A DNA stretch of 64,000 bases from an uncultured bacterium (GTDB lineage Bacteria; Fidelibacterota; Marinisomatia; Marinisomatales; JACNKV01). The stretch's first letter is position 1. Every line of letters begins with the position of its first letter. Shown one piece after another: positions 1 through 52,242 of this stretch. Below the pieces are notes generated by a model that saw only the letters and a program-made list of their open reading frames with translations, was not told the DNA's origin and ran no database searches. The stretch lies in NCBI GenBank assembly GCA_964388155.1, contig CAYLYH010000003.1, positions 24,268 through 88,267 of the forward strand, read 5' to 3'. The translations under genes and the position numbers were made by a program.

Positions 1-1
1 G

Positions 2-889
2 CTTGATTTTCTTATAGAACGCGGGATGAAAATCGGGCTTGTCGGGCGAAACGGCGCCGGAAAATCCACCTTGTTAAAATTACTCGCTGGTGTGGAGCCG
101 GTTACACAAGGACGTCTGGAGTATACACCCGGTGTAAAAAAAGCCTACTTTGCTCAGCATCAGTTAGAAATATTGAACCCGAATGATGCAGTGTTTACCT
201 CTATCCGAAAAAAATGTTCGGGTTGGACTGACAGAGAAATTCGCACGTTTTTAGGCGGTTTTCTTTTTTCCGGTGAAACGATTGATAAGCGAATCTCTGT
301 ATTGTCCGGCGGTGAAAAATCACGGCTTGCACTTGCACGGATACTTGCGGAACCTTCTCATGTCCTTTTATTGGATGAACCAACCAATCATTTGGATATG
401 GTATCCCGTGATATTGTAGAAACGGCTTTAAAAAATTATTCCGGGGCAATCGTTTGTATTTCTCACGACCGGCATTTTCTCAATGCCGTCACACATTTAA
501 CCGCAGAAATAGGCAATGGAAAAGCAACCTTGTATCATGGTAATTATGAATATTACGAGTGGAAAGTGTTGAATAAGGTTGAGGTTGAGCGAAGCGCCCG
601 CCTGCGCCCGCCTGCGCCCGCCTGCGGAACGGGCAGGGAACGGGTAGGGATTAAGGTTAAAACAAAAAAAACAGTTTATCGCGAAAAAAAGCGAAAGAAA
701 AATCGGCTGCAAAAAATTAAATTACTTCTGAAAGGTATTGAAGCTGAGCAACAATCTATTCAAAAAAAACTTTCAAGTTCTTCTGTTGCATCCGATTATG
801 AAAAAATTCATGAATTGTCCAAAAAAGACATGGAATTAGAATCAGCCTATTTTTATTTACTGGAAGAACAGGAAGCATTGGATAAATAA
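2..889 (+). CDS. ABC-F family ATPase, second ABC domain plus K/E-rich coiled-coil tail (5' end outside window)
   Basis: The frame is open to the window edge (LDFLIERG precedes the listed Met). Walker A GRNGAGKST, signature LSGGEKSRL, Walker B LLLDEPTNHLD, SHDR H-loop. No TM segments. Confidence 0.9.
   Translation, partial: LDFLIERGMKIGLVGRNGAGKSTLLKLLAGVEPVTQGRLEYTPGVKKAYFAQHQLEILNPNDAVFTSIRKKCSGWTDREIRTFLGGFLFSGETIDKRISVLSGGEKSRLALARILAEPSHVLLLDEPTNHLDMVSRDIVETALKNYSGAIVCISHDRHFLNAVTHLTAEIGNGKATLYHGNYEYYEWKVLNKVEVERSARLRPPAPACGTGRERVGIKVKTKKTVYREKKRKKNRLQKIKLLLKGIEAEQQSIQKKLSSSSVASDYEKIHELSKKDMELESAYFYLLEEQEALDK
576..660 (+). repeat. GC-rich composite repeat lying in frame inside the ABC-F gene
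   Basis: AGGTTGAGGTTGAG, then 3 x GCGCCCGCCT, then GCGGAACGGGCAGG GAACGGGTAGG, then GATTAAGGTTAA. The same module order recurs reverse-complemented at 20053-20177. The core is about 80% G+C by my count. Confidence 0.75.
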
Positions 890-3803: not shown

Positions 3804-4837
3804 AGAATGATTTGAATTGGATTTAGTCGAAAATGAAATTTTATTGCCCCTGCGGTGAAGAGTAGAGTATCAAAAACAAATTTTATGAAAATTGCCGGAA
3901 TAAAAAGAGAAAACATCGGAAAAAATAATGCTGAGATAAATAGACCGACATTTGTGAAGTATGTGGTAAGCAGAAAAAACAGAAAACCAAAACGGGAATA
4001 TCCTGACAGTTTTTTTGTGTTAGAAGCCCATCGGATTTGTTGACTGAAGAAATCAGAAAGCGACTGTACCGGTTCTGTTGTTACAAAGCTATGTGAATCA
4101 AGATTAAAATACACAGAAGCATACTTTGCAATGGATTGAACCAAAAACATATCATCGCCCGAGAGCTCATCTGCTACGGAGGTAAATCCTCCGATTTTGT
4201 CATAGAAAGATCGTTTGTATGCCAAATTCTGCCCGGACCCTGACCATGCCCTGTTCCAACCAATCGCCCCGGCATTGGCAGTCATAAGTGCAAAGAAATC
4301 GAGAAATTGATGTTGGTTCAAAAGAGAGTTGGGGTTTTTTTGCACTGTAGACAACCCAACAACAATCCCAGTTCCCGGATCAAATGCGTGAACCATGCTG
4401 TGGATCCATGTCATCGGTATGCGGCAATCTGCATCTGTTGAGAGAATAATCTCTCCGCCGGAAGATGCCTTGATGGCTCGGGATAGTGCGTGTTTTTTGG
4501 GGGTCATGTCTTCTGATTTCTTCGTTATCTGTACCCCAATAATATTTGAATGTCCTGACGCATATTCAGAGATGATATTCCATGTGCTGTCTTCTGATCT
4601 GTCGTCCGCAATAATCACCTCATATTTATCGTTCGGATACTCCTGTTTGGACAAATCCTGAAGGAGCTGTGGCAAGTTCTTTTCTTCGTTTCTTGCTGCA
4701 ATAATTACAGAAACAGATGGGAGGTCAATTCGGTGCTCCGACCCTCGACGCAGACGAAGCAGCCCAATGGTAAGCGCCAAAATAAAAACAAGATACATTA
4801 AGAAAGCACCGGTAAAAAATATGAGTAAAAAATTCAT
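3719..4837 (-). CDS. Membrane-embedded family 2 glycosyltransferase, processive type
   Basis: N-terminal TM. VSVIIAARNEE...IIADDRSEDST, DAD and the QQIRWA (QxxRW) motif. Multi-TM C-terminus. Confidence 0.85.
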   Translation of the reverse strand: MNFLLIFFTGAFLMYLVFILALTIGLLRLRRGSEHRIDLPSVSVIIAARNEEKNLPQLLQDLSKQEYPNDKYEVIIADDRSEDSTWNIISEYASGHSNIIGVQITKKSEDMTPKKHALSRAIKASSGGEIILSTDADCRIPMTWIHSMVHAFDPGTGIVVGLSTVQKNPNSLLNQHQFLDFFALMTANAGAIGWNRAWSGSGQNLAYKRSFYDKIGGFTSVADELSGDDMFLVQSIAKYASVYFNLDSHSFVTTEPVQSLSDFFSQQIRWASNTKKLSGYSRFGFLFFLLTTYFTNVGLFISALFFPMFSLFIPAIFIKFVFDTLLFTAGAIKFHFRLNPIQIILWVLFQIIYIPMLGVLSLIGRFNWKATS

Positions 4838-4893
4838 CGTAAGATAATTATTCAGTTATGAAAAACAACACAGATGCCAGACCTATATACTTT

Positions 4894-6267
4894 TTACCCC
4901 ACGGGAAGGATAGATATTGCAATCAGAAAATAGAGCGCAACACCAAGAATATCAATACTGGTTGTCACAAATGGTCCGGTAGCAATCGCAGGATCCACAT
5001 CCAATTTTCGAAGGAGAAGTGGAACAAGTGTGCCGATGAATGTCGCAATCAGCATGGAAGCACAAATACTCAACCCCACCACAAGCCCAAGATACGGACT
5101 TGTGTCCAAAAATTTAAAGATAGCAAACACGCCAAGTAATAAACCGTACAGACCGCCAAGAATTAGCCCGACGCTGGTTTCTTTGAGAATTAATTTAAGA
5201 TCGTCACCAATATTTACACGCCCGGTGGCAAGCCCACGCACCACAATCGTCGAACTTTGCGTCCCAACATTTCCTCCCATCCCAATAATGACAGGGATAA
5301 AGGCAGCCAAGGCCATCGTAGCTTCCAAGACATGTTCAAAAGCCCCAATGATGTACGCAGCAACAATTCCCCCTATCCAGCTAGCAAACAGCCAGGGTAA
5401 GCGTGCGCGTGCATTATCCCACGAAGACTTCAACAAGATTTCACGGTCTTTTCCGGCACCCGCCATCTGGAGAAAGTCTTCCGTTGCCTCTTCCCGGACA
5501 ACATCCACAACATCATCAACCGTAACGATTCCTAAAATGTGATCATCAGAATCGACCACGGGGATGGCAAGGTAATTATACTGGGAGACAACATGCGCAA
5601 CTTCTTCCTGATCTGTTTCCGGGCGAACAGAGTGAACGTGCTTAGCCATAATATCTTTTAATCGAACTTCAGGGGGTGTTGTCACAAGGTCTCTAAGTGA
5701 AATCACGCCGGTAAGACCTCCGTCATCATCGGTAATATAAAGGTAAAATACCATTTCTGCGTCTTCATGGTCCTGTAAAGAGCGTATGGCTTCCTCCGCT
5801 GTTGTTTCTTCGTGCAGCGTAAAAACATCTGTGGACATAAGGCTCCCGGCACTGTCTTCCGGATAAGCTAATATTTCTTCAACCTCTTCCTGTTCTTCTT
5901 CTTTCATAAGATCAAGCACCGATTGTACTTTTTCTTCGGATAATAAGTTTAGGATATCCGCCTGATCATTCGACCCAAGTTCTTGAAATATCCGGACAAT
6001 TCGTGCAGGGTCTTCTCTCTCAAGAAGGTTTGATACAATCGACTCATCCAGCTCGACCATAACCTCCGCCGTATGCACATCTTCGATCATGTACCCAAAC
6101 AGGGTTGTTTGTTCTGTGTCTGAGAAATATCGAAAGAGAACAGCAAGGTCAGCGGGATGCGTTTTTTGGATAAGTTTAATTAAGTTCGTTTTTGCATGCC
6201 GTCGAAGCAAACGGCGGAACGTATCACGCAAAACAGTAATTTCATGTACAAACATTTCTTTTTTCAT
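4894..6267 (-). CDS. mgtE: Magnesium transporter MgtE
   Basis: MgtE N-domain, tandem CBS region and a 5-TM C-terminus with the GNVGTQSS motif. Confidence 0.95.
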   Translation of the reverse strand: MKKEMFVHEITVLRDTFRRLLRRHAKTNLIKLIQKTHPADLAVLFRYFSDTEQTTLFGYMIEDVHTAEVMVELDESIVSNLLEREDPARIVRIFQELGSNDQADILNLLSEEKVQSVLDLMKEEEQEEVEEILAYPEDSAGSLMSTDVFTLHEETTAEEAIRSLQDHEDAEMVFYLYITDDDGGLTGVISLRDLVTTPPEVRLKDIMAKHVHSVRPETDQEEVAHVVSQYNYLAIPVVDSDDHILGIVTVDDVVDVVREEATEDFLQMAGAGKDREILLKSSWDNARARLPWLFASWIGGIVAAYIIGAFEHVLEATMALAAFIPVIIGMGGNVGTQSSTIVVRGLATGRVNIGDDLKLILKETSVGLILGGLYGLLLGVFAIFKFLDTSPYLGLVVGLSICASMLIATFIGTLVPLLLRKLDVDPAIATGPFVTTSIDILGVALYFLIAISILPVG

Positions 6268-9699: not shown

Positions 9700-9860
9700 T
9701 GAATAAAACACAAAACTTAACTCTGTTTACAAAAAATGTGGATTCCTCACTCCGTTCGGAATGACACAGTATTTTTGTCTTTCTGACGAACAAGGTGAAG
9801 ATAAAGTTGGAGCGAAGCGCCTGCCCGCCAAAGCCTTGGCGCAGGCGGGGAATTATTTTT
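9700..9860. repeat. Modular intergenic repeat, copy 2 (composite)
   Basis: 9741-9766 GATTCCTCACTCCGTTCGGAATGAC is identical to 15625-15649. 9705-9740 resembles 15721-15755. 9806-9850 carries GGAGCGAAGCGCC plus a CCTGCCCGCC...GCAGGCGGGG hairpin. Confidence 0.65.
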
Positions 9861-15486: not shown

Positions 15487-15619
15487 TATATGTGAGCCCA
15501 TTCCAGAAAGGGGTTCCTGCCGGTCCGGCAGGCGGGGGACACACACAATCAAATTCGGTATGTATGCGGTGTTCACAAGACTTTTTCTGTACACAAAACA
15601 ATGCTCCGTGGTGAGAAGT

Positions 15620-15780
15620 ATTTAGATTCCTCACTCCGTTCGGAATGACCCTGTATTTTTGTCATCCCGAAGAAAGAATGACTGAGGGATCTACAATATT
15701 TATCTCTGGGTATATGATTTTACAAAACACTTAACCCCGTATACAAAACAAAGTGGAAATGATAGTATTATTCCGGCGAT
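15620..15780. repeat. Modular intergenic repeat, copy 3
   Basis: Carries the GATTCCTCACTCCGTTCGGAATGAC module, the GTATTTTTGTCATCCCGAAG module and the ACAAAACACTTAACCCCGTATACAAAACAAAGTGG module shared with copies 1 and 2. Confidence 0.65.
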
Positions 15781-17210: not shown

Positions 17211-17262
17211 GTGTTTATAGGTTGAAGCAAAAAAATCACTCGGTGTTCTTTGGATTTCTGTT

Positions 17263-17658
17263 TTAGACGATGAACCGTTTTACTCCGTCTTTTAACAATT
17301 GTTTGTTGAAATTTATCAATAAGCCTAGCTTGAGTCCTCCCAATTTCATATAACTGAGTATTTGAGCGTCGAAAACTGGATTCATGTTTTCAACACACTT
17401 TAATTCTAAAACTACAGCGTCTTCAACCACAATATCCATTCGGTATTCTCCGATAAATCTACCTCTGTAATTTAATTTTAACACTTTTTGAACTTCATAA
17501 TTTAAACCGGCGAATTCAAACTCAATACATAGAGCTTTTTCATAAATGCTTTCCAATAGTCCCGAGCCAAGTCTTTTATGATCATTGATGGCGCAACCAA
17601 TGATTTTATTTGTGAGCCTATTTAAATCATCCAGCGTTTTATTTTTTATATTTGACAT
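17263..17658 (-). CDS. GxxExxY family protein (PD-(D/E)XK-like)
   Basis: GSGLLESIYEKAL motif and the typical ~130-aa size and architecture. Confidence 0.85.
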   Translation of the reverse strand: MSNIKNKTLDDLNRLTNKIIGCAINDHKRLGSGLLESIYEKALCIEFEFAGLNYEVQKVLKLNYRGRFIGEYRMDIVVEDAVVLELKCVENMNPVFDAQILSYMKLGGLKLGLLINFNKQLLKDGVKRFIV

Positions 17659-17702
17659 TGTTCTTCTTTTTGATATCTAAGTTCTCAAAACTTTTCATTC
17701 TT

Positions 17703-17719
17703 CTCTGTGGCTTTGTGGC
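17703..17719. repeat. Inverted repeat arm CTCTGTGGCTTTGTGGC (right flank of the GxxExxY gene)
   Basis: Its reverse complement, GCCACAAAGCCACAGAG, matches 17194-17210. Confidence 0.6.
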
Positions 17720-18459: not shown

Positions 18460-18592
18460 TCTGTTACGTTGAATTACGACGGAGAAATTACAGAAAAAAG
18501 CAGGTAGGGTTTTACGGAATGTTTACCCTGCTCTAAAGTTTGGCCATTCATACAGAATGCCGGTAGTAAATCCACTCAAAAAACACTCACAG

Positions 18593-18632
18593 TAAACTGA
18601 CGGCGTCAGTTTAACGCCGATATGGTCGGCGT
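18593..18632 (-). terminator. Two tandem perfect hairpins directly after the aminopeptidase stop (terminator or REP-like)
   Basis: TAAACTGAC-ggc-GTCAGTTTA and ACGCCGA-tatgg-TCGGCGT. No clear U-run. Confidence 0.3.
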
Positions 18633-18647
18633 ACTCAAAAACCAAAA

Positions 18648-19727
18648 CTACAATTCTACCAATTCTTTCGTGGTCTTATTCAAAATTTCACAACCGTCTT
18701 TTTGGATAATCACATCATCTTCTATCCGCACACCGCCCCAGCCGGGGAGGTATATCCCAGGTTCAATCGTTACAACGTAATTCTCTTTTAACACATCCTT
18801 GCTCATTTTACTCAGGCGCGGCATTGTGTGTATCTCCAACCCAAGTCCGTGCCCTGTAGAATGTGAGTATGCTTCACCATATCCGGCAACCTCAATGACA
18901 TCCCGAGTGAGGGCGTCAGCATCTTTGCAGGACATTCCTGCTTTTACTCCGTCAACACCGGCTTGCTGTGCCTGTTTCACAATTTCGTATATCTCTTTGT
19001 GTTTATCCGTTGCCGGACCGATCAGCGGGGTACGAGTCATGTCGGCATGATACCCGGCATATTTGGCGGCCGCATCAATAACGATAAAATCCCCGGACTG
19101 GAATTCGCGCTCACCGGGTACTGCATGCGGCAACGCACTGTTTGGACCTGAGGCCACGATGGATGAATACGCTTCACCATCACCATATTTTCTGTACCGC
19201 ATGGCAAATTCGTTCGCGATAAATTTCTCCGTTACACCCGGACGCATCAACGGCAATACTTCTTCATAAACATTATCTGTAATTTCAACCGCAGTTCGTA
19301 TGGCGTTTAATTCCGTTTCATCTTTTACAGCTGCAATTTTCTCGACAATTCTTGAAGAGCTTTCCCAGCGCACACTCGGGAACAGTGTTTTCATCCTTTG
19401 GAAAAGATTTACGCTGACAAAATCTCCTTCAAAGGCTAGTTTAACATCTTTGGGAATTAACGTGTTTTTTTGTATACTTTTTAAATGGGAAACACTGTCG
19501 ATATACCGATTAAACCCCTTTACTTCTCTTTGAGATTGTTCGATATACCGTCCGTCAGTAAAAAAGGCATGAGTATCTCCAAGGATGAGACACGACCCGG
19601 CCGAACCGGTAAACCCGCTGATGTAGCGAACGTTTGTAAGGTTGGTAATAAACATACCGTCTAATCCCGCTGATGCCAATTCGGTTTTTAATGTGTTTAA
19701 ACGGCGTGAAAATATTTTATCACTCAT
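18648..19727 (-). CDS. pepP: M24 family Xaa-Pro aminopeptidase
   Basis: HSTGHGLGLEIHTMP and TIEPGIY...GGVRIEDDV metal-ligand motifs. Creatinase-like N-domain. Confidence 0.85.
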   Translation of the reverse strand: MSDKIFSRRLNTLKTELASAGLDGMFITNLTNVRYISGFTGSAGSCLILGDTHAFFTDGRYIEQSQREVKGFNRYIDSVSHLKSIQKNTLIPKDVKLAFEGDFVSVNLFQRMKTLFPSVRWESSSRIVEKIAAVKDETELNAIRTAVEITDNVYEEVLPLMRPGVTEKFIANEFAMRYRKYGDGEAYSSIVASGPNSALPHAVPGEREFQSGDFIVIDAAAKYAGYHADMTRTPLIGPATDKHKEIYEIVKQAQQAGVDGVKAGMSCKDADALTRDVIEVAGYGEAYSHSTGHGLGLEIHTMPRLSKMSKDVLKENYVVTIEPGIYLPGWGGVRIEDDVIIQKDGCEILNKTTKELVEL

Positions 19728-19823: not shown

Positions 19824-20582
19824 TCATGGGATGTGAATTTTAATTTGTTCTTCAAGGTATTGCTTTTCTTTTGCTAAGCGTTCCGGGTCTCCGCCTTTTT
19901 CTTCCAACACAGATAATACTTCTAACGCCTGATGAAACAATCCTTGGTTTTTCAAGACAGAGACTAGAGTAAATGTTGCTAATTTTGGGCTGATCGACAT
20001 CGGCTCTAAATGTTCATCAATAGACGGTGTTTCTGATACTTTTTTCTTTTTTCCCTTAGCCCCTGCCCGTTCTCTGCCCGTTCCCTGCCCGTTCCCTGCC
20101 CGTTCCCTGCCCGTTCCCTGCCCGTTCCGCAGGCGGGCGCAGGCGGGCGCAAGTGGGTCAGTCTTAACCTCAACCTCATTCTGTCCGATTAGTATTTCTA
20201 AGGTTTTCTTGGCTTGCCTGTGATTCGCGTCAATTTTTAACACAGCTTCCCAGCTTTTTCGGATGGTGTTTTTTGCTCGACCTAACGCTTCCTGTACCTG
20301 TGCTAACAGCACAGTCCCCTGAAGGTGAATCACTCCGCTTTTTTGTATTTTCTTCAGAGCGCGCTCCGCTTCAGTAATTTGTCCTTCTGCTAACGATGCG
20401 TTTGCAAAAACAAATAGCCCATCCACTTGGTTTGGGTGGTGTTTAAGTCCTATTTCACACACCTTCCTTGCGCGGGAGTGGTCTTCTTCAGTGAAATAAA
20501 TGTCGGCTAATACCGGAAACAAAATTGTATCCAGGTGATCCGCAAAATACAATTCTAGTTCAGCTTTGTTGTGAATGTCCAT
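19824..20582 (-). CDS. TPR-like repeat protein carrying an in-frame GC-rich repeat insertion
   Basis: Helical-repeat N-terminal half. The segment APACARLRNGQGTGRERAGNGQGTGRERAGAKGKKKK is encoded by the repeat at 20053-20177. Confidence 0.6.
   Translation of the reverse strand: MDIHNKAELELYFADHLDTILFPVLADIYFTEEDHSRARKVCEIGLKHHPNQVDGLFVFANASLAEGQITEAERALKKIQKSGVIHLQGTVLLAQVQEALGRAKNTIRKSWEAVLKIDANHRQAKKTLEILIGQNEVEVKTDPLAPACARLRNGQGTGRERAGNGQGTGRERAGAKGKKKKVSETPSIDEHLEPMSISPKLATFTLVSVLKNQGLFHQALEVLSVLEEKGGDPERLAKEKQYLEEQIKIHIP
20053..20177 (-). repeat. GC-rich composite repeat in frame in the TPR gene, including 6 x 11-nt tandem units
   Basis: Plus strand: 6 x CTGCCCGTTCY (20063-20128), 2 x GCAGGCGGGC (20129-20148), ...TTAACCTCAACCTC. 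The reverse complement is colinear with 576-660. Confidence 0.8.
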
Positions 20583-21545: not shown

Positions 21546-21705
21546 AGCGTTAGGGGTTGTTCGTTAGGGGTTAGGGGTCCGCCCGAGGCGGATAAATGTT
21601 TGGTGCTTAAATTTGTTTTGTTTTTCTAATCAAATTAGTTGTAATCTACTAATCTTTTATGTCTCCCAGTCTGCATTCTTTGTCGGGCGGGGAGGCTGTC
21701 TCCTT

Positions 21706-30169: not shown

Positions 30170-30255
30170 TAAAGCCCTTAACCTCAGCCCCGACTAAGTC
30201 GGGATTTCCTGCCCTTCCGGCAGGCGAGTGATTTGCTCAACCTTAGCCTTGGTTA
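30170..30255. repeat. Hairpin repeat flanked by inverted AAGGTTGAG/CTTAACCTC-type arms
   Basis: CTTAACCTCAGCC...CCTGCCCTTCCGGCAGGCG...CTCAACCTTAGCC. The arm and core motifs are related to those at 576-660 and 20053-20177. Confidence 0.4.
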
Positions 30256-30259
30256 AAAT

Positions 30260-30862
30260 TTATTCGTCCTCGTCCTCTTCGTCGTCTTCATCTTCTTCCC
30301 ACTCGTCCTCTTCTTCATAAAATTCCGGTGGGTAGGCATACATCGGATGGGGATAATCTTCGTAATTCTCTTCTGTGTTTTCTTCTTTGGAAGCTGCCAG
30401 TTCTTGTTTGATCACAATAATTCTGGGATCTTTTTCCTCTTTTTCAACTTGGTCAATGGCAGTTTGAACCCATTCCTTTTCTTTTGGAGAAAGTCCGGGA
30501 GTGGGTGCGGAGGAGTCTCTTTTGTTAAATAATAAGCCAGTTAACACAGCAAACAAGAGCACCATCAGTCCAAAAAGGGCGCCTTCTTCCCGGATGACGT
30601 ACCCACCAAACTTAGTTTGTTCAAGCCCAAATTGCAGGAAAACCGCAATGGACATTAAAATTCCAAACAAGATGATGAGCCTGCCTGCAATGTCCGGTAA
30701 TGTGCTTTCCATAATAAAACTATAAAGCACCCAACCCAAAACCCCAATGATCGCAAAAATGATGGCAAGTATGAAATTCTCTGCAAAAAGAGACAGAACA
30801 AAACCGACGATTGCGGCAATGGGTATGAGATACCCAACTCCTGTTTTTATATCATTCCCCAT
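30260..30862 (-). CDS. Membrane protein (4-5 TM) with polyacidic C-terminal tail
   Basis: Hydrophobic N-terminal 110 aa. Tail YEEEDEWEEDEDDEEDEDE. Confidence 0.5.
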   Translation of the reverse strand: MGNDIKTGVGYLIPIAAIVGFVLSLFAENFILAIIFAIIGVLGWVLYSFIMESTLPDIAGRLIILFGILMSIAVFLQFGLEQTKFGGYVIREEGALFGLMVLLFAVLTGLLFNKRDSSAPTPGLSPKEKEWVQTAIDQVEKEEKDPRIIVIKQELAASKEENTEENYEDYPHPMYAYPPEFYEEEDEWEEDEDDEEDEDE

Positions 30863-40098: not shown

Positions 40099-40485
40099 TT
40101 GCCTGTCCGCCCCATGGCTGGGTGAGTGGTAATTGGTGAATTTGTTATTGTCGTAACGTAGGGCCTGCCCGACAAAGAATGCAGGCGGGAAGACCCCGTG
40201 TTTTTTACGGGAGTGAGAACACAACCTTTTTTTAAGGACACGTTGTCCTGTAAAATAAATGACATTTGCAGGATAAAGTGTTTTGCTTCAGGGTTGTCTT
40301 TTTGAATATCATTTCTTCACCTTGGCAAGGTTGCAACAATAAATTAATATGTCTACTCTGTAGACTAGTTTATATGTGTATATGTATACTATGTTTACAT
40401 TGTGTTGTTTGTAAAATAACACGGGTATCCTATTATCTCTCTATTGAGCAGCGTGTTATGGTGCTTTCTAGGTTTATTTTAACTT

Positions 40486-51433: not shown

Positions 51434-51835
51434 ATGGCAATGAAAAAACGAAGGTTTAAAGGTGGAGAAATCCCCACAGCATCGATGGCAGATATCGCCT
51501 TTTTGTTGTTGATTTTCTTTCTTGTCACAACAACGATTGACACAGACAAGGGACTGGGGATTGTCCTCCCTCCAAAAGGTGATACAATTGAGATTAAAAA
51601 GAAAAATATTCTTAATTGCCTGATTAACTCCTCCGGAAATGTCCTCCTTGGGGGTGAACCTGTAAAAATTCAGAATATTAATCGAGTTGTGAAAGAAAAA
51701 CTACGTGTAAACAATAAGTTAATCATTTCAGTTAAAACACACGGAAAGTCCCGGTATCGCGACTATGTGAGGGTTATTGATCAGTTGAAAATGGCGAACG
51801 CGACACGAATTTCAATTGCGGAAAGCGAATTATGA
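51434..51835 (+). CDS. exbD: ExbD/TolR biopolymer transport protein
   Basis: IPTASMADIAFLLLIFFLVT N-terminal TM signature. Confidence 0.85.
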   Translation: MAMKKRRFKGGEIPTASMADIAFLLLIFFLVTTTIDTDKGLGIVLPPKGDTIEIKKKNILNCLINSSGNVLLGGEPVKIQNINRVVKEKLRVNNKLIISVKTHGKSRYRDYVRVIDQLKMANATRISIAESEL

Positions 51836-52242
51836 AGTTTACAAAAAAAACAAAACTTAGCAGTGAAATCCCCACAGCATCCATGCCGGATATCATCTTT
51901 ATGCTGTTGATCTTCTTCATGGTTACCACCGTTTTAAGAGAATATTCCGGGTTGCCTATTGAGCTTCCGAAAGCCAAGCGGATTGAAAAACTAAAGTCGA
52001 AACGACATACGGCGCAAATATGGATTTCAAAGGAAGGATTAATTTCCATTGAAGACAAGCTCTTTGCCGTCCAGGATGTAAAACACATCATGTACGAACG
52101 CCGTTCCGCGGATCCTCAGATTACCATATCATTAAAAGCCGATGAATCAGCTCGAATGGAAATCATATCCGGGGTTCATAACGAACTCAGAGAAGCCGAT
52201 GCGCTTAAACTGAATTACTCCACAAAAACAGAAGTTAATTAA
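51832..52242 (+). CDS. exbD: ExbD/TolR biopolymer transport protein (second copy)
   Basis: IPTASMPDIIFMLLIFFMVT. 4-nt overlap with the first exbD. Confidence 0.85.
   Translation: MKFTKKTKLSSEIPTASMPDIIFMLLIFFMVTTVLREYSGLPIELPKAKRIEKLKSKRHTAQIWISKEGLISIEDKLFAVQDVKHIMYERRSADPQITISLKADESARMEIISGVHNELREADALKLNYSTKTEVN

Follow-up and report, generated by a model that had tools for sequence, protein, structure and literature searches.

A translated 21-nt GC-rich repeat in two protein linkers of a Marinimicrobia bacterium, and its occurrence in other bacteria

Why would two unrelated protein genes carry the same GC-rich repeat, inside their coding sequences and in frame? The question is raised by a 64-kb stretch of DNA (hereafter the window) from an uncultured bacterium, whose predicted proteins have homologues named Marinimicrobia, Neomarinimicrobiota or Fidelibacterota. 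The GC content of the window is about 42%, and nearly pure G+C runs occur at 576-660 (+) and 20053-20177 (-). The first run lies in the 3' part of a gene for an ABC-F ATPase (1..889, +; open reading frame (ORF) 26..889; 635 aa at full length in contig L010), and the second lies in a gene for a 252-aa TPR-like protein (19824..20582, -). We find that each run is built from one 21-nt unit, CCCGCCTGCGGAACGGGCAGG, and that the identical unit is present in other bacteria, where it forms clean insertions of seven residues in unrelated proteins. We favor, with some reservation, a reading of the repeat as a very small dispersed element, GC-rich and weakly hairpin-forming, that is probably mobile and has been amplified locally in this genome. 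In its behavior it would rank among the smallest known pieces of mobile DNA.

Anatomy of the repeat and its place in two protein linkers

An initial annotation of the window proposed that one composite repeat is shared by the regions 576-660 (+) and 20053-20177 (-), and this is borne out. The longest inverted repeat of the whole window pairs 597-650 with 20104-20157 (54 nt, 94% identity). The motif GAACGGGCAGG occurs nine times with at most one mismatch against 0.7 expected, and GCGCCCGCCT occurs six times against 1.6 expected; neither count was reached by any of 100 shuffles. Tandem Repeats Finder resolved period-10 arrays at 594-626 (3.3 copies) and 20128-20151 (2.4 copies), and period-11 arrays at 626-650 (2.3 copies) and 20061-20128 (6.2 copies). 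Both composites read (CCCGCCTGCG)n and then directly (GAACGGGCAGG)m. The composite is one 21-nt unit, CCCGCCTGCG joined to GAACGGGCAGG, whose 10-nt and 11-nt halves have each been tandemly amplified, with three and two half-unit copies in the ABC-F gene and three and six in the TPR-like gene, where the first 10-mer is degenerate (CCCACTTGCG).

The two arrangements can be followed module by module. In the ABC-F gene (all +), the left flank at 575..593 holds the hexamers AAGGTT GAGGTT and then GAGCGAA, and includes GGTTGAGCGAAGCGCC, which is also found in an intergenic copy at 9798-9828 (direct-repeat family D15). The 10-nt array follows at 594..626 (GCGCCCGCCT / CCCGCCTGCG, 3.3 identical copies), the 21-nt core lies at 617..637, and the 11-nt array at 627..648 consists of GAACGGGCAGG and then GAACGGGTAGG. 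The Lys-rich coding right flank at 649..670, GATTAAGGTTAAAACAAAAAAA, in which the AAGGTT of the left flank recurs, is identical in the sister species. In the TPR-like gene (all -), the hexamer repeat GAGGTTGAGGTT at 20166..20177 forms the left flank, one degenerate CCCACTTGCG and two copies of CCCGCCTGCG occupy 20128..20157, and the core lies at 20117..20137. Six copies of GAACGGGCAGG, one of them GAACGGGCAGA, fill 20062..20127 in a copy number that is polymorphic, and the Lys-rich GGCTAAGGGAAAAAAGAAAAAAG follows at 20039..20061. Both composites are alike also in their flanks, with RAGGTT hexamer repeats on the left and a TAAGG motif plus an A-rich, Lys-coding run on the right. A left module identical in both genes had been described; it is present as such in the TPR-like gene (GAGGTTGAGGTT), while the ABC-F gene has AAGGTTGAGGTT, one mismatch away.

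Both repeat regions lie within long ORFs and are translated through in frame. The peptides quoted in the initial annotation are the exact translations of ORF 26..889 (+) and ORF 19824..20582 (-), ARLRNGQGTGRERAG being an example of the encoded peptide. A common orientation and reading frame had also been claimed for the two copies. The orientation agrees, as does the frame at both ends, but the central junction is read as CCC GCC TGC GGA ACG GGC AGG (PACGTGR) in the ABC-F gene and as GCC CGC CTG CGG AAC GGG CAG (ARLRNGQ, the core itself giving (A)RLRNGQ) in the TPR-like gene, because the two genes differ in their spacer and in how many 10-nt units they have. The 21-mer contains no stop codon in any of its six frames and its length equals seven codons, so that a coding insertion merely adds seven small or charged residues.

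The placement of both inserts in linkers, likewise anticipated, is supported by domain and structure prediction. Pfam recognizes two ABC_tran domains, an ABC_tran_Xtn and an ABC_tran_CTD in the ABC-F protein, the last at residues 571-633 with a weak match (E 3.6e-4, 21 bits against a Pfam cut-off of 32 bits). The insert (residues 533-562 of 635) falls between the second ABC domain and this C-terminal, coiled-coil domain. In the TPR-like protein (Pfam TPR_14 and TPR_19), a disordered linker joins an N-terminal helical repeat to a C-terminal three-helix domain. An AlphaFold2 model built with 18 orthologues has confident helices at residues 6-132 and 199-250 and a predicted local confidence (pLDDT) below 50 at 135-197, and the insert (136-181) lies within the low-confidence stretch.

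Comparison with orthologues, a check the initial annotation had called for, separates what was added to these proteins from what was amplified later. TPR-like proteins of a sister species (P0002-7; genome GCA_974654135.1 and the metagenome-assembled genome (MAG) NIOZ-UU68) are 93% identical outside the insert and 28 residues shorter; their DNA, GAGGTTAAGGTTAAGACCGGCTCGCCTGAGGAACGGGCAAGGGCTAAGG, holds a single diverged unit in which only CTCGCCTGAGGAACGGGCAAGG is present. Orthologues at 62-67% identity bear no trace of the repeat. For ABC-F, the general protein search was swamped by matches to the generic ABC domain and gave no close orthologue; the sister protein was taken from a 90% cluster. 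It is 93% identical, and its linker reads KHKAD-PPA(D/G)RPARQAERAGVKVKTKK against NKVEVERSARLRPPAPACGTGRERVGIKVKTKK in the window. The corresponding sister DNA, AAGGCTGACCCGCCTGCCGGCCGGCCGGCAAGGCAGGCGGAACGGGCAGGGGTTAAGG (CCCGCCTGCC..GGCAGGCGGAACGGGCAGG), combines a perfect hairpin with a 9-bp stem and one 11-mer in 42 nt (2 x 21), between a 3' flank identical to that of the window over about 100 nt and a 5' flank with few differences. In ABC-F homologues of about 50% identity, the insert site is a gap of 13 residues. Neighboring-gene contigs of relatives end just past the M23 peptidase gene, and relatives further removed no longer show synteny. The claim of an insertion therefore stands in part: distant orthologues without the repeat indicate an addition to both proteins, but the composite was not inserted as one piece, both sites having been occupied already in the ancestor shared with the sister species. 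Between the two species, the element regions are rebuilt much faster than their flanks. The local score of the two window copies against each other is 54, higher than that of either against its own orthologous counterpart (33 and 22), and the presence of intergenic family members differs between the species where the genes are 91-95% identical.

Copy number also varies within the species. A TPR-like allele from JGI sample 3300009105 (L177) has identical flanks and three full 10-mers plus four 11-mers (4+4 if the degenerate copy is counted), a change of +10 nt and -22 nt relative to the window that nets -12 nt and keeps the frame. All four TPR-like alleles and all 14 ABC-F cluster members that span the repeat (cluster n=15) are in frame, and no out-of-frame (OFF) allele was found among them. 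Because every allele stays in frame, the copy-number variant included, the arrays are coding minisatellites under frame constraint. Units of 10 and 11 nt inside ORFs, neither a multiple of three, and a copy number that varies in the population could also indicate a phase-variation (contingency) switch, in which the gain or loss of a unit shifts the frame and toggles the C-terminal domain of each protein. We consider such a switch very unlikely, given that all of these alleles are in frame, that the variant allele altered both arrays and kept the frame, and that the hosts are housekeeping-type cytoplasmic proteins rather than surface or restriction genes.

Short-read assemblies often mis-resolve tandem repeats, and contigs of a relative break beside neighboring intergenic repeats, which could raise the suspicion of an assembly or sequencing artefact of GC-rich, low-complexity sequence. 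There is practically no chance of this. The ABC-F stretch is base-for-base identical in an ENA assembly (L009) and a JGI assembly (L010) from different samples, and is therefore not an assembly artefact, which settles a doubt that the initial annotation had itself raised. The reading frame is moreover intact, related but different versions occupy the same two sites in sister-species sequences from other projects, and another sample provides a coherent in-frame allele.

The 21-nt unit in other bacteria

We scanned JGI metagenome contigs for exact copies of the 19-nt junction between the half-units, CGCCTGCGGAACGGGCAGG, and obtained at least 120 matches; those listed, on which the following counts rest, precede the contigs of the window species. 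A parallel scan covered GTDB representatives other than the window's own genome with a pattern that required an extra 3' G, and so saw about 6% of the family. The listed matches include 88 loci with less than 50% GC, corresponding to at least 79 distinct low-GC sites, at each of which the match is an isolated GC island. The dinucleotide CC, which lay outside the query, precedes the junction at 74 of the 79 sites, and therefore the conserved unit is the same 21-mer. A purine stands before this CC at 65/79 sites, and beyond this R at -1 the listed sites share no conserved flank.

The copies are frequently coding. By a stop-to-stop ORF test, 43 of 84 listed sites are inside long ORFs. Their hosts include DNA ligase, exonuclease III (ExoIII), triosephosphate isomerase (TPI), LepA, FolD, FabD, PheT and the CCA-adding enzyme, and further imidazolonepropionase, PrmC, Fic, restriction enzymes, a resistance-nodulation-division (RND) pump and many C-terminal domains of the type IX secretion system (T9SS). 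Alignment to solved structures shows ARLRNGQ to be a clean seven-residue insertion in TPI (1b9b, 7rmn) and PARSAGG an insertion of six to seven residues in ExoIII (5j8n, 3g91), both of them in loops. Use of the six frames is strongly uneven. With homologous sites collapsed, 30 listed events comprise PARSAGG (16), RLRNGQ (9), PPAERAG (3), PACGTGR (1), LPVPQAG (1) and CPFRRR (0), a skew (chi-square 39.6, p = 2e-7) that fits selection on the encoded peptide. Hosts and contigs that carry names belong, besides Marinimicrobia, to Bacteroidota, Bacteroidales, Candidatus Paceibacterota, Saccharibacteria, Brocadiia and Planctomycetota, where names for single contigs may reflect errors in MAG binning.

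Three matches are of another kind. In the metagenome loci L151 and L166 and in Neisseria polysaccharea (L055), the 19-mer is native coding sequence for TPAERAGVKSGD, which we take to be a PDZ-type motif. A few 19-mer matches are accordingly native coding DNA and not insertions.

Could the wide occurrence of the core be explained without mobility? One alternative is that the composites are purely local minisatellites, ancestral GC-rich linkers that were expanded by slippage and made alike by gene conversion between the two genes, with nothing mobile involved. The copy-number polymorphism between identical flanks would follow from this, as would the single-unit versions already present at both sites in the sister species and the greater likeness of paralogues than of orthologues. 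Half-unit arrays were, in addition, seen in this species alone among all loci compared. What such expansion leaves unexplained is that no fewer than 79 unrelated sites in other bacteria have the exact junction as a seven-codon insertion, and that the window has intergenic relatives with the same module order; more distant orthologues also lack any such sequence. We regard a purely local origin as improbable.

A second alternative takes the identity of the copies as its starting point. At orthologous sites in LigA and in ExoIII, each represented by three lineages, the 21-mer is 100% identical and the flanking 120 nt are 72-83% identical. This is suggestive of constraint on the 21-mer rather than proof of it, because an exact-match search finds unchanged copies alone. 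The 21-mer could nevertheless be a selected nucleic-acid signal, a DNA or RNA motif that is recognized by a conserved host factor and kept by purifying selection, with the peptide as a by-product; protein-binding hairpins, pause or processing sites, and recombination or repair signals are examples. An identical sequence in several phyla with no mobilizing gene nearby would suit such a signal. Yet the apparent conservation is partly ascertainment, and the copies share no neighbor, occur in either orientation and are spread over unrelated genes and intergenic DNA. Between the window and the sister species, no other part of either gene is as poorly conserved as the element regions, the hairpin is weak, and no Rfam family was matched by the window or by 20 metagenome sites. 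We think it unlikely that a signal of this kind accounts for the repeat.

The surroundings of the copies bear on how they may have arrived. Direct repeats of at least 7 nt flank 14 of the 79 listed sites against 2/79 in a control. Their spacing clusters at 35 nt (five sites, against 0.05 per control replicate), with single cases of 28 and 42 nt; these three values equal 21+7n. A heptamer-repeat context, defined by a lag-7 identity of at least 0.5 over the joined flanks, is found at 6 of 64 listed sites and in no distal control, and lowering the threshold to 0.47 gives about 12 of the 64. The heptamers run in phase across the element at these sites, which are a subset only. A fixed target-site duplication was rejected. 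Insertion within heptamer repeats accounts better for the recurrent spacing of 35 nt, and a duplication is unlikely because an addition of 35 nt would break ORFs that are intact. Extra copies near listed sites are rare. L045 has what looks like a nested copy of the element.

Origin, spread and genomic surroundings

Taken together with the local polymorphism, these distributions lead us to infer the following course of events. The element would have entered the linker DNA of the ABC-F and TPR-like genes before the split from the sister species, after which each of its two halves would have multiplied independently to give the 10-nt and the 11-nt tandem array. Possible routes to this are nested self-insertion at the center of the element, slipped-strand mispairing or unequal exchange between copies; selection would account for the fact that only frame-restoring combinations are observed. 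In general, the element may survive where a protein tolerates seven residues, in loops and linkers, and the encoded peptide would most likely be a neutral, disordered linker extension.

The sister ABC-F sequence and L045 look nested, with slippage as an alternative. Nested self-insertion predicts equal numbers of the two halves. Allele L177 fits this prediction if its degenerate copy is counted (4+4), but 3+6 and 3+2 are unequal, and slippage or unequal exchange must therefore account for them.

These inequalities are one of several observations that weigh against a mobile element. The 21-mer folds into a 5-bp stem of -4.4 kcal/mol, no better than shuffled sequence, and the composite arrays also fold no better than shuffles (z +0.2, -0.65 and +1.2). 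A hairpin is accordingly rejected as a defining feature of the master 21-mer and of the arrays. Copies in this organism were counted within the 64-kb window. The sister TPR-like protein is only four residues longer than an element-free orthologue, so that this site is not a clean insertion of seven residues. No empty site was found for the 21-mer in a near-identical genome, and the clusters at 90% identity all carry it. Beside the listed copies there is no transposase or other recurrent gene, an all-against-all comparison of neighboring ORFs yielding only clusters of host-gene families. A motif scan did find one Y1_Tnp ORF, in L116, 3.3 kb from 21-mer copies and flanked by another palindrome. 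Copies of the 21-mer are absent from the IMG/VR viral contigs (0 copies), and collections of phages and plasmids gave matches at chance level only.

Two further searches were negative: the 64-kb window has no HUH + Y motif like that of REP-associated tyrosine transposases (RAYTs), and searching the literature by nucleotide or peptide string returned nothing relevant. The Y1_Tnp gene of L116 is of interest in itself. It lies at 4414-5112 of a Paceibacterota-type contig, is IS200-like (RAYT-like), and has the palindrome TTACAGAGG..CCTCTGTAA on both sides. This could be a pair of a RAYT and its repetitive extragenic palindromic (REP) sequence in a candidate-phyla-radiation genome; the palindrome is unrelated in sequence to the 21-mer, of which this contig has two copies. 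An ORF of more than 1300 aa in L123, restriction-modification-like, has a Y1_Tnp-like HUH + Y motif (MPNHVHVL ... YIRENPLKANL) and a PARSAGG copy near its N-terminus.

A bolder version of the mobile-element reading deserves mention, and we hold it only tentatively. The 21-mer may be a horizontally distributed, frame-neutral, stop-free mini-element that is identical in at least five bacterial phyla, and at orthologous sites whose surrounding codons have diverged by 20-30%, and that is rebuilt faster than its flanks between sister species. This would imply that different phyla share a machinery, either enzyme or RNA template, for its sequence-specific copying or homogenizing. If true, no mobile element described from several phyla would be smaller than the 21-mer, which would also supply bacterial proteins in general with seven-residue loop insertions.

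Even the more modest reading, a very small and probably mobile repeat, would have consequences. Many uncultivated low-GC bacteria would have protein inserts of non-protein origin, including in core enzymes such as DNA ligase, exonuclease III, triosephosphate isomerase, LepA and FolD, which matters for annotation, alignment, phylogenetics and structure prediction. It would also pose the puzzle of how an identical 21-nt sequence is copied and kept up without an adjacent transposase. The window offers a natural experiment in this respect, in which a seed has given rise to a polymorphic coding minisatellite under a frame rule (10a + 11b nt).

Relatives of the repeat also occur between genes. The two intergenic relatives previously noted, at 9806-9850 and 30170-30255, are real, and we found more at 15516-15536, 40164-40189 and 21661-21691. 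The first belongs to a copy at 9798..9855 (+; direct-repeat family D15) in which the left module AAGTTGGAGCGAAGCGCC is followed by a hairpin, GCGCCTGC..GCAGGCG. A composite with the same module order as the coding copies lies at 30170..30255 (-) and consists of AAGGCTAAGGTTGAGC, a spacer, CTCGCCTGCCGGAAGGGCAGG, an extra hairpin and GCTGAGGTTAAGG; it folds with z -2.5 to -3.0 and is not in the sister species. At 15516..15536 (-) stands a 21-nt variant, CCCGCCTGCCGGACCGGCAGG, with a predicted DNA hairpin of -8.2 kcal/mol (z -3.8), and at 40164..40189 (-) a variant with a longer loop, CCCGCCTGCATTCTTTGTCGGGCAGG (inverted-repeat family I6), of which 21661..21691 (+) in the dnaE-dtd spacer is a degenerate copy of the same family. 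Unlike the master 21-mer and the arrays, the intergenic variants fold better than shuffled controls.

The dnaE-dtd spacer itself (21546-21705) measures 160 nt in the window; its counterpart in the sister species (L001 8919-8943) has only 24 nt. The additional DNA holds (GTTAGGG)n heptamers, a GC hairpin, TCCGCCCGAGGCGGA, and the degenerate copy of the 40164 element. This hairpin, at 21578-21592, adjoins the heptamers, and the CCGCCCGAGGCGG hairpin type is also found beside the 21-mer in metagenome loci L060 and L125. Two other repeats lie close to intergenic copies. Directly after the composite at 30170..30255, a GA-rich triplet-type repeat (TCGTCC/TCTTCG) at 30260-30316 (-) appears to encode, on the minus strand, an acidic C-terminal tail rich in Asp and Glu, and the intergenic region of the 40164 element also holds 2.3 copies of an AT-rich 25-nt tandem repeat, ATATGTGTACTATGTAGACTAGTTT, at 40347-40405.

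Another mosaic family of intergenic repeats, with no relation to the GC-rich element, is found at 885-1060, 9736-9801 and 15620-15772, and in L056 at 4825-5085. Its components include AATAATACC..GGGGTTAAGTGTTTTGT (51 nt at 86%, inverted, 885-935 against 15722-15772) and TTCCTCACT(C/T)(C/T)GTTCG..GACAAAAA at 975-1017, 9759-9801 and 15620-15674. In the sister species this family occurs downstream of ABC-F as well, and short-read contigs L006-L008 of a relative stop exactly in this region.

Other differences from the sister species involve whole genes. A segment of about 490 nt at 17220-17711, in the place of which the sister species has 62 nt, encodes a 131-aa protein of the PD-(D/E)XK nuclease superfamily (Pfam PDDEXK_3, E 1.6e-39) and looks like a small mobile ORF. 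Conversely, the sister species has a 3.9-kb island (L001 11850-15733, at about 18525-18649 of the window) that is not in the window and encodes a 293-aa ORF, an RNase_T-domain protein, a Fic protein and a phage-type integrase. A 65-nt direct repeat within the window (51467-51531 and 51865-51929; 80% identity, 398 nt apart) probably represents the conserved N-terminal segments of two adjacent paralogous genes.

Comparison with known repeat systems

Several classes of small repeats share features with the 21-mer. Miniature inverted-repeat transposable elements, which span 70-300 bp and have terminal inverted repeats plus a fixed target-site duplication, were rejected: the unit here is 21 nt, terminal inverted repeats are absent, and the flanking repeats are variable and explained by heptamers. 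Coding variable-number tandem repeats of contingency loci resemble the arrays in their non-triplet tandem units (10 and 11 nt) within ORFs and in population copy-number variation. They differ in that none of the alleles seen here is out of frame, that a dispersed element gave rise to the unit, and that the hosts lie outside the gene classes that typically phase-vary.

Short mobile GC-rich hairpins are known from AT-rich organellar genomes of eukaryotes, namely the GC clusters of yeast mitochondria and the 'byp' elements of Magnusiomyces, and are found there also in protein-coding genes. Byps are skipped by the ribosome, whereas the 21-mer is stop-free, a multiple of three in length and evidently translated.

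REP sequences are likewise GC-rich, dispersed units, of 20-40 nt and with hairpin potential, and the intergenic variants in the window fold well, though the master 21-mer is only weakly palindromic. As described in PMC3733652, REPs have a conserved GTAG or CGTC tetranucleotide at one end and have been documented inside genes, including DNA ligase and repair genes; REPs and their doublets, REPINs, are mobilized by RAYT (Y1) transposases according to PMC3116915 and PMC3733652. Neither GTAG nor CGTC occurs in CCCGCCTGCGGAACGGGCAGG or its complement, about half of the listed copies are genic rather than extragenic, and no doublet organization was seen for the 21-mer. No RAYT adjoins the listed copies, the one Y1_Tnp observed having a different flanking palindrome. 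With no tag, no mainly extragenic distribution and no linked RAYT found, membership in the REP/RAYT system was rejected.

Rickettsia palindromic elements (RPEs), to which the initial annotation had likened the composite, are about 100-150 bp long, clearly palindromic and Rickettsia-specific. They are portrayed in PMC3733652 as repeats that lie in frame inside functional ORFs, where they are tolerated as an extra peptide, and that also occur between genes. The 21-mer does the same, in frame inside intact ORFs at tolerated sites and in intergenic DNA. Since many further genes have the 21-nt core as a clean insertion in frame, the analogy holds for behavior. It does not extend to the unit, which is far smaller, weakly palindromic and found across phyla, with a Marinimicrobia host here; membership among the RPEs was rejected on unit length and on the want of a long palindrome. 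The analogy was right in spirit, but the composite arose by local amplification of a 21-nt unit rather than by insertion of one module.

The closest counterpart may be the small dispersed repeats (SDRs) of Nostoc. Elhai et al. (2008) reportedly described SDR1-8 as units of 21-27 nt that are dispersed, also inside genes, and form a small predicted hairpin; copies are said to be embedded in tandem heptamer repeats and to have inserted into their own copies. We know of no mobilizing enzyme for SDRs, nor, to our knowledge, is the separate amplification of half-units into 10-nt and 11-nt arrays an SDR feature. The 21-nt unit here, with which the seven-residue gaps agree, falls within the SDR size class, and its copies are dispersed in many contexts, including inside genes, with a small predicted hairpin. 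A subset stands in tandem heptamer repeats, the arrays in the window and the copy in L045 are explicable as self-insertion, and neither system has a mobilizing enzyme assigned to it. By description, which is the basis of this comparison, the 21-mer best matches SDRs in size, heptamer context and possible self-nesting. SDRs of Nostoc and its relatives are cited in PMC3116915, PMC2884548 and PMC5861425, the last of which reports them as confined to Nostocaceae. The 21-mer is found instead in Marinimicrobia, Bacteroidota, the candidate phyla radiation and Planctomycetota. As these hosts are not cyanobacteria, it would at most be a new family of the SDR kind, and very small mobile repeats, so far from one cyanobacterial family, would then extend to several phyla.

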